Virus record (IMG/VR): IMGVR_UViG_3300037851_000284
Location: 32,001 to 96,000 of that record
DNA from: a virus
Taxonomy: Duplodnaviria > Caudoviricetes
Length of the DNA: 64,000 bases
Reading direction: 5' to 3' (one strand)
Shown piece after piece: positions 40,070 to 43,642 of the stretch. Each line of letters starts with the position of its first letter. Position 1 is the first letter of the stretch. The position numbers and the translations under genes are program-made. The notes under the pieces are model-generated. The model was not told the DNA's origin. It made no database searches and saw only the letters and a list, made by a program, of their open reading frames with translations.

Positions 40070-40511
40070 AAAACAAATAATAAAACTGGTAAAGAGAGCA
40101 TACCCAAGCTTTAATTCTCTTATTAAATATGGTTCAGACCATACATGCGAAGGCTCTCCTGCCTTTGTAGATAAATATAGTAATATTTGGATAAACAAAG
40201 AGAACTTTTTTAAATTCAGTGATTTAGATCAGAAAATAATTATCCTTCATGAGATAGGACACATATTGGTAAAACCAAGAAAAATAAGGAACCTATCGGA
40301 TGAGGAATTATTTGCTAATAACGCAGCAACCAAGAGAGCAATGGATAAGAGATGGTTTTCAATAGCAAAAGGATTAAAAGAAATGATACGCTGCTGGCCA
40401 ACTACGTTTTCTTGGAATGAAGAAAAAGGATCTTATAGAAGATATATAATAGCAGGAAAAAAATATAACAGGAATAGACACAATGAAAAAAAGAATAGGG
40501 TTCGTAAGTAA
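40062..40511 (+). CDS. zincin-like HExxH protein
   Basis: IILHEIGH ... E.FA. Confidence 0.55.
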   Translation: MNKKQIIKLVKRAYPSFNSLIKYGSDHTCEGSPAFVDKYSNIWINKENFFKFSDLDQKIIILHEIGHILVKPRKIRNLSDEELFANNAATKRAMDKRWFSIAKGLKEMIRCWPTTFSWNEEKGSYRRYIIAGKKYNRNRHNEKKNRVRK

Positions 40512-40827
40512 TAGTAGCTCACAGTGTTACATATTAGACATGAGAGTTCCAGAAGTTGTGATGTTCGTAAATGAATTATTAGAACTTGATCTACCAAAGG
40601 TAACAACAGATAATAGAGGAAATGGTCTTTCTATAGGAAAAGAAACGGAAGATTTTATAGAAGAACTAAAAGAGTGTTACAAAGATGGAAAAATAGATAA
40701 AGAATTAGAAGAACATATACATGAAATAGGAACTGATGATATCGCTTTACTGAGAGATTCAGATGAAAGTGACACAGAAATTCCGTATCCAGAAGGAATA
40801 GTGGCATACACCTTTGATTATCATTAA
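40483..40827 (+). CDS. GFVSNSSS-motif family protein, copy 1
   Basis: MKKRIGFVSNSSSQCYI. Confidence 0.75.
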   Translation: MKKRIGFVSNSSSQCYILDMRVPEVVMFVNELLELDLPKVTTDNRGNGLSIGKETEDFIEELKECYKDGKIDKELEEHIHEIGTDDIALLRDSDESDTEIPYPEGIVAYTFDYH

Positions 40828-40839
40828 CAAGGAGAGACT

Positions 40840-41865
40840 ATGAACATCATAGAAAAAGGGAATCTAAAAATCTTAAGAAGTACGGATTATAATTATTTAT
40901 TTAATAAAAATAACGGCTACTTCCTAAGATGGGGAAAGGAAATAGACGACGACCCACAATATTCTCCATATGGACCAGAGATTCTAGATATAGAAGTAAC
41001 TACTAAATGTACCGGTCCCTCTAATAAAGTATGTTCTTTCTGTTACAAGAGTAATACCCCAAACGGATCTAATATGAGTTTGAATACATTCAAAACTATA
41101 TTAGATAAAATGCCTAAAACCTTGACACAAATAGCATTCGGTGCTGATGCTCATGCTACTTCAAACCCAGAATTATGGGAGATGATGAAATATGCAAGAT
41201 CAAAAGACGTCATTCCTAACATTACTGTGGCAGAAATTACAGATGATATCGCAGATTCTCTGGTACATTATTGTGGTGCTGTTGCTGTTAGTAGATATAG
41301 TGATAAAAACCTTTGTTATGACTCGGTCAAAAAACTAACAGACAGAGGATTAAAACAGGTAAATATCCACCAAATGATATGCCAAGAAACTTATGAACAG
41401 GCTATCGACACCATTAAGGACTGTAAGATAGACAAAAGACTGGCCAATTTAAATGCTATAGTCTTTCTATCACTAAAGAAGAAGGGAAGAGGAGAAAGAT
41501 ACACACCTTTAACACTAGAGCAATTTAAAAGTCTAGTAAACTTATCCTTCGAGCTTAAGAGTCCCTTTGGTTTTGATAGCTGTTCTTGTCATAAGTTTAT
41601 GGATGCTATCAAGGACAGGAAAGACTATTCACAACTAATGAAGAGTGCTGAACCATGTGAGAGCTCAGCATTTTCTAGTTATATTGACGTAGATTCCACG
41701 TTCTATCCATGTAGCTTCTCAGAAGAAGCACAAGGATGGGAAGAAGGATTAAAGATAACTGAAGAAACAGACTTTATGAAAGATATATGGAATAATCCTA
41801 GAACTATAGAGTTCAGGAATAATTTATTAAAATGTTCTCGTAAATGTCCACTATATAAGATTTAA
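40840..41865 (+). CDS. radical SAM protein with twitch/SPASM-like C-terminus
   Basis: CTGPSNKVCSFC (Cx7Cx2C), QIAFG, C-terminal CES...YID....YPCSF...C..CP. Confidence 0.88.
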   Translation: MNIIEKGNLKILRSTDYNYLFNKNNGYFLRWGKEIDDDPQYSPYGPEILDIEVTTKCTGPSNKVCSFCYKSNTPNGSNMSLNTFKTILDKMPKTLTQIAFGADAHATSNPELWEMMKYARSKDVIPNITVAEITDDIADSLVHYCGAVAVSRYSDKNLCYDSVKKLTDRGLKQVNIHQMICQETYEQAIDTIKDCKIDKRLANLNAIVFLSLKKKGRGERYTPLTLEQFKSLVNLSFELKSPFGFDSCSCHKFMDAIKDRKDYSQLMKSAEPCESSAFSSYIDVDSTFYPCSFSEEAQGWEEGLKITEETDFMKDIWNNPRTIEFRNNLLKCSRKCPLYKI

Positions 41866-41904
41866 TGTTAAAAATATTGTTGATTTCACTAGGAGTATTT
41901 TGAC

Positions 41905-42378
41905 ATGAAAAAAAGACAAGGATTTGTCAGTAATTCAAGCACTGCCTGCTTTATAGTACGTCATAAAGGTATAGATATTCTAGGAGCAAGAAAAAGCAAG
42001 AAGGGACTTCTAACAAAGAAGGAAATATCTATTCTTAAAAAAATAGGATTCGAAAGAACACATCACATTAATCCATTACACTACTCTAAAGAACCTCAAC
42101 CAGTAGAAACTGGTTTTTATAACTATGGATTTGATGTAACAGTAAACGAGTTTGAGATAATTGAACAGTTAATCAAAAATAATATTTCATTTACAGCAAG
42201 CTGTCATTATGACCAATATTTAGTATTCTATGACAAGACATCTAAAAAAGTATATGTTTTTAAAAATGCAGGACAGCACTACATGATGAACACATCAAAT
42301 ATTGAAGAATTATCATTACAGAAATGTTGTAAAACGATGTCAGTAAAGGAATTCTTAAAGGAAGGTTACTATATATGA
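41905..42378 (+). CDS. GFVSNSSS-motif family protein, copy 2
   Basis: MKKRQGFVSNSSTACF. Confidence 0.75.
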   Translation: MKKRQGFVSNSSTACFIVRHKGIDILGARKSKKGLLTKKEISILKKIGFERTHHINPLHYSKEPQPVETGFYNYGFDVTVNEFEIIEQLIKNNISFTASCHYDQYLVFYDKTSKKVYVFKNAGQHYMMNTSNIEELSLQKCCKTMSVKEFLKEGYYI

Positions 42379-42737
42379 AAACCAGATACGGGTTCGTTAG
42401 TAACTCGAGTTCGACTAGCTTTATTATAAAAGACAAGTCAGAAGAGAATGTAAGAAGATACATTACCTCTCTATTAGATGCGCGCAATCAAATAAATAAT
42501 GAGAATAGAAGAGTTGACGATATATGTACTATACATACAACTAATGACGTAAATATCTATATATTTAATTATTACGACTATTATCATTATGGTAACAAAA
42601 TTACATTTGATCAGTACAAGAAATTAGAAAATATAACGAAAGAAGAACAAGGAGTAATAGTAGAATCAACATCAGATAATAGTATTCCTTTGTTTATTAA
42701 AGAAGCACTAGAAGAAATAGGAAAAAAGATATCATAG
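42375..42737 (+). CDS. GFVSNSSS-motif family protein, copy 3
   Basis: MKTRYGFVSNSSSTSF. Confidence 0.75.
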   Translation: MKTRYGFVSNSSSTSFIIKDKSEENVRRYITSLLDARNQINNENRRVDDICTIHTTNDVNIYIFNYYDYYHYGNKITFDQYKKLENITKEEQGVIVESTSDNSIPLFIKEALEEIGKKIS

Positions 42738-42742
42738 TTAAT

Positions 42743-43096
42743 ATGAAAATAAGAACAGGGTTTATAAGTAATTCGAGCTCATCTAGTTTTATCATAGCAT
42801 ATAAGAAAGAACGAAACGTTTGTTCTCGTTGCGGAAGGTCTGATCCTAACATTATTCAAATTCTTAGAGAAATGAACAGCAAATATGAAGATACAGAATT
42901 AAGAATAGAAGGAAAAAAAGAGGTAATCGAATACATTAAAGAAAACTGGAGCAATGAAACAGAAAAAGTTATTAAGAAAATAGAAAACACTAAAAATATG
43001 GAAATAGCTTTAATATATATTTCCTATCATGATACCGTCCTACGTAAACTTTTAAAGAGCTGTAAAGACATTAAAATCTTAACTAAGCATACATAA
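42743..43096 (+). CDS. GFVSNSSS-motif family protein, copy 4
   Basis: MKIRTGFISNSSSSSF; CxxC. Confidence 0.75.
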   Translation: MKIRTGFISNSSSSSFIIAYKKERNVCSRCGRSDPNIIQILREMNSKYEDTELRIEGKKEVIEYIKENWSNETEKVIKKIENTKNMEIALIYISYHDTVLRKLLKSCKDIKILTKHT

Positions 43097-43279
43097 TGAA
43101 AACAAGACAAGGCTTTGTAAGTAACAGTAGTTCCTCTAGTTTTATTATTATGTGACGGAGAAGTAGTTGAATTAAAAGAGTTTGATGATAAGAATATATT
43201 AACTGCATTAAAGAAGGTTGGTATTAAAGAAACCAAGTTAAAAACATATATTCAATATGCAAGCAATGATAACTATTAA
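43096..43279 (+). pseudogene. GFVSNSSS family copy 5, frameshifted
   Basis: MKTRQGFVSNSSSSSFIIM* (19 aa); +1 frame continues CDGEVVELKEF... Confidence 0.6.
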
Positions 43280-43287
43280 GAAATTTT

Positions 43288-43642
43288 ATGAAACTAAGAA
43301 CAGGATTTGTAAGCAACAGTATCACAAGTAGTCTTTTTAATATATGGAACAGAATTAGGTAAATACAAATTCGCTGAATTAGTAGCCAAAAAACACAAGA
43401 ATACAATAGAAAATAGCTATCAGAAATAAATACTCTTCTAGAAAACGTAAGAAAACTAAGATAACTATAGAAGAGTTATTAATAAAGGCGATAGAAGTAT
43501 ATACCTATATTTTATATAATTGATTATAACCCCAGTATAGTGTATCTGGGAAAAGTCTGTGTTTCATAAAAGATAATGAAACAATAGGACAATTTAAAAA
43601 TCAAATAAAAAAAATAAAAGAATTACTGGATAATGCTAAATA
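43288..43642 (+). pseudogene. GFVSNSSS family copy 6, multiply frameshifted
   Basis: MKLRTGFVSNSITSSLF...* then other frames read LIYGTEL... and IKDNETIGQFKNQI. Confidence 0.55.

Follow-up and report, generated by a model that had tools for sequence, protein, structure and literature searches.

A 64,000-nucleotide window of a freshwater jumbo phage genome (bases 32001-96000 of the 219-kb IMG/VR record IMGVR_UViG_3300037851_000284, ~95% complete and with ~33% G+C) carries an array of small genes whose products share an N-terminal tag of 16 residues followed by bodies without detectable homology, and this array flanks the gene of a predicted radical S-adenosylmethionine (SAM) enzyme. Across viral genomes tag and enzyme are linked in both directions, and the predicted fold of the enzyme is closest to those of SuiB and SkfB. 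On balance, we favour the reading that the tag, borne by a set of mostly acidic phage proteins that is turning over, is recognised and probably also modified by a single SuiB/SkfB-like maturase. DNA near-identical to the phage record is present in freshwater metagenomes.

The tagged array and its decayed members

Six open reading frames (ORFs) of the window open with MKxRxGF(V/I)SNS, four of them intact and two broken, and flank the enzyme gene in the following arrangement:

40483..40827, + strand: tagged protein 1, 114 aa; tag MKKRIGFVSNSSSQCY; acidic body (isoelectric point, pI, 4.2) of a singleton type
40840..41865, + strand: radical-SAM enzyme, 341 aa; Cx7Cx2C plus four invariant C-terminal Cys; predicted SuiB/SkfB-like fold with a short N-terminal β region
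41905..42378, + strand: tagged protein 2, 157 aa; tag MKKRQGFVSNSSTACF; basic body (pI 9.1) of body cluster 7
42375..42737, + strand: tagged protein 3, 120 aa; tag MKTRYGFVSNSSSTSF; singleton body type; start overlapping the stop of gene 2
42743..43096, + strand: tagged protein 4, 117 aa; tag MKIRTGFISNSSSSSF; member of a large subfamily
43096..43279, + strand: decayed copy 5; tag intact; TGA after codon 19 (43153-43155)
43288..43643, + strand: decayed copy 6; degenerate tag (SNSITSS); TAA after 24 codons (43288-43362)

Within the 64-kb window, the back-translated pattern GGNTTYRTNWSNAAYWS is matched exactly six times, on each occasion at the start of a tagged ORF, and phrog_7397, run against all 219 kb of the phage, returned the same six starts and no others. 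Comparison of codons for the same residue among the tag copies revealed that 70 of 167 pairs differ, switches between AGY and TCN Ser codons included, and the tag is therefore conserved at the protein level and not as a DNA repeat.

Decayed copy 5 reads MKTRQGFVSNSSSSSFIIM and then TGA, with a further open stretch in the next frame (43121-43276, stop at 43277-43279). Copy 6 reads MKLRTGFVSNSITSS at its start and, beyond its TAA, retains in another frame a C-terminal remnant (43530-43643) that resembles the bodies of the "SFCIYG" tagged subfamily. The broken stretches recur identically in low-depth contigs of two other freshwater samples (X2, both copies; X3, copy 6) and are thus not a one-off assembly error. 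An earlier note on this DNA had described four intact and two frameshifted ORFs with a common N-terminal leader, a description that the ORF listing, the raw sequence and the six pattern matches confirm; its proposal that the family turns over by birth and death finds support in the two decayed copies.

A conserved tag on unrelated bodies

The tag and the bodies behind it were compared in 163 tagged ORFs, taken from enzyme loci L011-L064 plus the window. The tag consensus is M-K-[ITV]-R-x-G-F-V-S-N-S-S-S-S-S-F-[IVC]-[IVC], in which R4, G6, S9, N10, S11 and S12 are present in 163 of 163 sequences, R4 being among these a residue that the search pattern did not impose. The tagged proteins are 85-260 aa long. 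Those of the window match phrog_7397 at positions 1-24 only, and therefore share its tag and not its body.

The 163 bodies fall into 63 BLAST clusters, and profile-profile comparison of the clusters after removal of the tag detected no homology among them, the best probability being 16%, in agreement with the unrelated bodies described in the earlier note. Within the window, the intact proteins represent two recurring body types (the proteins at 42743 and 41905) and two singletons. A single body fold, suggested by a late motif (a strand followed by S-x-D-[END]-x-G, with an aromatic-Gly C-terminal end), was considered and dropped on HHalign probabilities of 16% or less. The bodies have a common acidic character, displayed by 92% of them (median pI 4.6) as against 34% of the remaining ORFs of these loci. 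Among the four intact copies of the window, two depart from this pattern and are basic (pI 9.1). A CxxC lies directly after or near the tag in 39 of the 163 tagged ORFs.

Tagged protein 4, whose body carries CxxCGRSD and …SYHD within a small α/β plait, belongs to a subfamily of 633 representative clusters (E ≤ 1e-10), and a tblastn search with it against cultured phages returned no match. The free positions of the tag are more alike within a phage than expected (0.54 vs 0.26; 0 of 500 permutations), and so are the Ser codons (0.43 vs 0.31 expected). Within-phage likeness of the free positions was considered as a sign of co-adaptation with the enzyme and set aside as ambiguous, because the Ser codons are alike too and DNA-level exchange can account for it; it points to recombination or duplication through the tag.

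Two-way linkage of tag and enzyme

To relate the tag to the enzyme, 54 IMG/VR enzyme loci were retrieved with 10-kb flanks. ORFs with the strict tag, from 1 to 13 in number, lie within 10 kb of the enzyme in 44 of the 54 loci, always on the strand of the enzyme, and in most cases they adjoin it on its downstream or upstream side. In four further loci the tags depart from the strict form at G6 alone, where Y, F, S or N stands instead, giving 48 of 54 in total, and one more has three tags elsewhere in its genome. The only families that recur around the enzyme are those of the enzyme itself and of the tagged proteins.

The converse relation was examined by a tag-pattern scan of IMG/VR, which returned at least 120 stretches, and 74 tag-bearing viral records were examined among the matches listed. 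The enzyme is present in 55 of these 74, the 19 records without it being fragments, and in all 12 of those that are at least 90% complete. Co-occurrence of the motif with this radical-SAM clade, predicted in the earlier note, thus holds in both directions.

The linkage extends to cultured phages. An enzyme 48% identical to that of the window was found in 173 records, nearly all of them T4-like enterobacterial phages such as RB16, KP27 and GAP161, and the cultured E. coli phages RB16, RB43 and Lw1 carry both enzyme and tagged proteins. Phage GAP161 encodes two proteins opening with MKIRSGFVSNSSSSSFI, ~20 kb from the enzyme. A search of prokaryotes, with one genome for each of 185,579 species, revealed only 14 enzyme loci, all on contigs of metagenome-assembled genomes (MAGs), of which 11 are tagged. 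On two Promethearchaeota MAG contigs, L195 (793 kb) and L196, binned as Asgard archaea, the enzyme and the tagged ORF are divergent, on opposite strands; these contigs could be provirus, giant virus or chromosomal.

The enzyme adopts a predicted radical-SAM fold

The enzyme is a full-length match to phrog_7293, a family of unknown function (E 7.5e-113, residues 3-339), and its own, well-conserved family counts at least 3,584 members (E ≤ 1e-5), for many of which identity is 55-70%. Alignment with 20 homologues in this identity range revealed the invariant residues C57-x7-C65-x2-C68, C159, C248, C273, C291 and C336. The Cx7Cx2C motif, located after strand 48-52 of the model, departs in its spacing from the canonical CxxxCxxC. 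C159 lies within the barrel, and C248, C273, C291 and C336 are the only Cys kept after it, as compared with the seven of the SPASM motif, which suggests a single, twitch-like auxiliary cluster rather than a full SPASM domain.

The AlphaFold2 (AF2) model of the enzyme (predicted local distance difference test, pLDDT, 91.5) displays a radical-SAM barrel, that is, a partial TIM barrel, followed by a C-terminal Cys-rich domain. Structural similarity search with this model gave 191 PDB matches at E ≤ 0.001, of which the best 50 were listed and are radical-SAM enzymes throughout. The nearest solved folds are SuiB (Z 23.3; 305 residues, 3.7 Å) and SkfB (Z 21.7). They are followed at Z ~18 by PqqE, ChlB, the anaerobic sulfatase-maturating enzyme (anSME) anSMEcpe (17.9), viperin-like enzymes and BlsE, with CteB and EpeE slightly lower; the majority of these named enzymes act on peptides or proteins. 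By its three-Cys motif and predicted partial (β/α)6 barrel, the enzyme is placed in the radical SAM superfamily; the earlier assignment of a Cx7Cx2C radical-SAM gene with C-terminal Cys of the auxiliary-cluster type agrees with both the invariant Cys and the modelled fold.

The enzyme gene is matched in two to four separate pieces in the IMG/VR records G007, G053, G054, G058 and G067, some of these pieces lying inside one long open frame; in some phages the gene may thus be disrupted or contain an insertion (intein, intron or homing element). A more distant enzyme subclade (E ~1e-45 to 1e-46) accompanies strict tags in seven records (G010, G024, G030, G037, G048, G049 and G070), with the same 360-aa open frame in each.

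Predicted structure of a tagged protein and its complex with the enzyme

Tagged protein 4, the one tagged protein modelled as a monomer (AF2, 123-sequence alignment, pLDDT 86), is predicted to be a small β-α-β plait with a confident body. Residues 1-9 are disordered (pLDDT <50), and residues 13-20 (SSSFIIAY) form the first core strand, β1. In this model one half of the tag is a free tail and the other a structural strand. The possibility, raised in the earlier note against its own proposal, that the motif is a structural β-strand is thus realised for residues 13-20 of this one model and not for the disordered residues 1-9. Foldseek comparison of the protein with the PDB and the AlphaFold database (AFDB) returned nothing at E < 0.04, and a wide structural search reached at best Z 6.0, with generic α/β plaits (procarboxypeptidase pro-domains, EF-G domains, NikR/ACT-like folds) and no specific relative.

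The enzyme was modelled together with tagged protein 4 from separate alignments, with SAM and two [4Fe-4S] clusters included. The complex scored 0.84, as against 0.01 for the best of three controls, and three runs agree in at least 61% of contacts. The mark used for this score is reached by 58 of 80 solved complexes and by 2 of 110 mismatched pairs, a calibration that is only rough here (own alignments, ligands). On the partner side the confident interface comprises exactly residues 1-10 of the tag. On the enzyme side it comprises 32 residues, namely 25-32 and 35-38 plus the inward-facing barrel residues 48, 97, 99, 125, 127, 129, 146, 147, 149, 173, 175, 177, 206, 208, 210, 244, 246, 268, 269 and 271. 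Tag residues 1-5 follow the conserved N-terminal strand of the enzyme (residues 25-32 and 35-38), and tag residues 6-10 touch barrel residues 97, 99, 127, 129, 146, 147, 173, 175, 177, 206, 210, 244, 246 and 271. Conservation across the family reaches 90% or more at 23 of the 32 interface residues, as against 101 of 309 elsewhere (Fisher p = 2e-5).

The modelled complex supports but does not demonstrate binding of the tag by the enzyme, the modelling of leader with enzyme proposed in the earlier note having placed tag residues 1-10 on the N-terminal strand and in the barrel. Together with the linkage, the unrelated bodies and the predicted freedom of residues 1-9, it also lends weight to the original view of the tag as a recognition piece on diversified proteins.

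Proposed recognition and modification, and the alternatives

In the mechanism that we propose, the flexible first ~10 residues of the tag would pair with the conserved N-terminal β-strand of the enzyme (residues 25-32), and the paired tag would thread into the partial TIM barrel. There the 5'-deoxyadenosyl radical would take a hydrogen and a covalent change would be left within roughly G6-S12. Candidate radical-SAM chemistries are oxidation of Ser at Cβ, a carbon-carbon crosslink from Phe to Ser or Asn, and epimerisation. One enzyme would mature every tagged protein, and the array would gain and lose members. A more ambitious form of the proposal, in which phages from the T4-like group to freshwater jumbo phages use the enzyme to install a new covalent modification in a universal 16-residue tag and thereby activate or protect fast-evolving, unrelated and mostly acidic effectors, is less likely than not.

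Several observations weigh against recognition and modification of the tag by a maturase. The enzyme has no significant match to curated NCBIfam models or to PDB sequences in profile searches, and it scores under the Pfam cut-offs both for radical SAM (PF04055, 15.1 bits, cut-off 29.5) and for SPASM (PF13186, residues 273-336, 20.6 bits, cut-off 21.5); a few homologues carry a precomputed PF04055 hit, and some carry PF13186. In the complex model the pLDDT of the partner is 51-55, and the score may partly reflect likeness to the solved complexes SuiB-SuiA, CteB-CteA, ChlB-ChlA and anSME-peptide. The Ser run, part of which forms the core strand of the monomer model, may be partly structural. Tagged genes stand apart from the enzyme in T4-like phages and in one jumbo phage, and the IMG/VR contigs behind the linkage counts are phylogenetically non-independent. 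Finally, most known leader-dependent maturases use the conserved piece as a handle and not as the site of modification.

This last point leads to the best surviving alternative, in which the tag is a docking handle only and the enzyme acts on the body or on a third molecule, or in which the tagged proteins are interchangeable specificity or regulatory subunits. Maturases of peptides that are made by ribosomes and then modified post-translationally (RiPPs) typically bind their substrate by a conserved leader and carry out the modification on a core separate from it, linkage and complex model bear on association and not on the site of chemistry, and 92% of the bodies are acidic despite their unrelated sequences. 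However, the bodies hold no detectable shared motif that could serve as a common target, tag residues 6-10 are modelled inside the barrel amid family-invariant residues and thus beyond a peripheral recognition element, and the invariance that reaches S9-S15 exceeds the apparent need of a docking strand. We regard this alternative as rather unlikely, if a serious one.

Distinctly less probable is that the tag has another purpose, as a shared first strand or loop or as a packaging, localisation or degradation signal, and that the enzyme is linked to it only through membership of the same accessory module. The assignment of residues 13-20 to β1 of the body fold is in keeping with this, as are the ~20 kb that separate tagged genes from the enzyme in T4-like phages and the within-phage likeness of free positions and Ser codons, which points to DNA-level exchange. 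Against it stand the presence of the enzyme in 12 of 12 near-complete tag-bearing genomes although it is rare overall, the location of residues 1-9 outside the fold, and a complex score of 0.84 when controls reach 0.01 at most.

It is very improbable that the enzyme is an activase placing a protein radical on the tag, for instance at G6 of R-x-G-F: R4-x-G6-F7 is superficially like the glycyl-radical motif and pyruvate formate-lyase activating enzyme (PFL-AE) is among the lower-ranked fold matches (Z 12.7-12.9), but several lineages replace G6 by Y, F, S or N with the rest of the tag kept, the flexible N-terminal tag is not buried in a large radical-sheltering barrel, and its Arg spacing is unlike that of the glycyl-radical enzyme site, R-V-x-G-[FY].

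As to the roles of the tagged proteins, their size, acidity and turnover and their position in a replication module allow the guess that they serve early host take-over or anti-defence.

Gene neighbourhood

The ORF listing and profile hits place the tagged array and enzyme inside the replication-gene module of the phage. Upstream, a family-B DNA polymerase gene is followed by a Dam-like methyltransferase gene, the gene of a 149-aa HExxH protein and then the array with the enzyme; after the array come a promoter-like site and genes for a sigma-factor-like protein, a Cas4-like nuclease, an Erf-like annealing protein and a primase-helicase. The two features that border the array are:

40062..40511, + strand: HExxH protein, 149 aa; upstream neighbour overlapping tagged gene 1
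43647..43675, + strand: promoter-like site, TTGACA-17-TATATT; consensus match only, directly 3' of the array

The HExxH protein had been proposed as a leader peptidase. It gave only weak hits to Peptidase_M78 and PhageMetallopep (E 0.006-0.03), and no homologue of it was found in 68 other enzyme loci, which speaks against that role; by this comparison it is not a conserved part of the tag-enzyme system. Comparison of neighbour families around the enzyme loci likewise revealed no conserved peptidase family and no conserved exporter. The promoter-like site is probably the start of the next transcription unit, as judged from its match to consensus.

The gene of the Cas4-like PD-(D/E)XK nuclease (phrog_1706/1990; 45595-46611, - strand) is the sole long minus-strand gene in the region and is flanked by the sigma-factor-like gene (44212-45051) and the Erf-like annealing protein gene (47557-48297). 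In the region 46663-47392, 3 kb downstream of the array, the gene of a 196-aa Cys-rich protein of the Pfam family GP88 (PF17338, E 3e-7) is overlapped at its start by a small CxxC…CxxC ORF (46663-46812).

Comparison with known systems

A literature search on the tag, on phage radical-SAM enzymes and on RB43-group phages found no description of the tag or of a role for the enzyme. Should the enzyme modify the tag, it would represent a widespread, undescribed post-translational system of phages and a new mode of recognition for radical-SAM maturases, based on a 16-residue N-terminal tag carried by whole proteins. The tag would then provide a sequence handle for hundreds of unknown phage effector families, as well as a portable tag for enzymatic protein modification.

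Glycyl-radical enzymes and their activases do not match in motif, the tag presenting R-x-G-F at a predicted free N-terminus with a replaceable Gly6. The anSMEs (AtsB, anSMEcpe) resemble the phage enzyme in their related fold (Z 17.9) and as radical-SAM maturases of whole proteins with a Ser-containing motif near the N-terminus, to the extent that the phage enzyme would perform such chemistry. The sulfatase-type conversion of Ser or Cys, drawn upon in the earlier note as a parallel, is not upheld, as the tag consensus MKIRxGFVSNSSSSSF, with no P or R at the required positions, does not contain the (C/S)xPxR target motif. In addition, no anSME model appears among the NCBIfam hits of the enzyme at E ≤ 1, and the phage bodies are not sulfatases, have no common fold and are phage-encoded.

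In FxSxx-COOH systems the peptide is accompanied by a zincin peptidase and by FxsB, a radical-SAM/SPASM enzyme (Kaur et al. 2020, PMC7159879; also Haft and Basu 2011, as cited there). A conserved metallopeptidase releases their conserved piece, which is located C-terminally, and the systems are actinobacterial and tied to vWA-MoxR/AP-ATPase conflict modules (PMC7159879). Both systems combine a rapidly diverging small protein, a short conserved F-x-S-x-x and a radical-SAM neighbour, the phage tag containing F-V-S-N-S. In the phage system, however, the conserved piece is N-terminal, no peptidase is conserved and the enzyme has no NCBIfam hit to that family. FxSxx-COOH/FxsB is the nearest printed analogue and differs in polarity, partners and taxonomy.

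Prochlorosins are a RiPP family in which one enzyme serves many precursors with a conserved leader and a hypervariable remainder. Several tandem substrates per genome, an invariant N-terminal piece and the gain and loss of members are common to both. In contrast, what varies in the phage proteins is an entire protein domain, enzyme class and chemistry are different, and removal of the leader is not indicated. More generally, the short precursor with a protease-removed leader that is typical of RiPP maturase systems is not matched by proteins of 85-260 aa with no recurring protease near the enzyme.

The closest structural likeness is to SuiB/StrB (streptide) and SkfB, RiPP maturases of the radical-SAM class that have SPASM or twitch domains and that come nearest among solved folds, with a lead of ~4 Z units over other radical-SAM enzymes. 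They too are encoded beside their ribosomal substrate or substrates and bind a conserved N-terminal piece, a feature that the complex model would extend to the phage enzyme. Sequence identity is 13-17%, and the phage enzyme differs from both in having Cx7Cx2C instead of CxxxCxxC, four invariant post-barrel Cys instead of the seven of SPASM, and a β region of ~45 residues in place of the ~100-residue RiPP recognition element (RRE) domain. Its predicted substrates are not short peptides but folded proteins of 85-260 aa and of many unrelated types, in a system without conserved leader peptidase or exporter. If tag modification by the enzyme is real, this system would constitute a counterpart of RiPP maturation that is encoded by viruses and operates at the level of proteins, its chemistry being one so far unseen on whole proteins.

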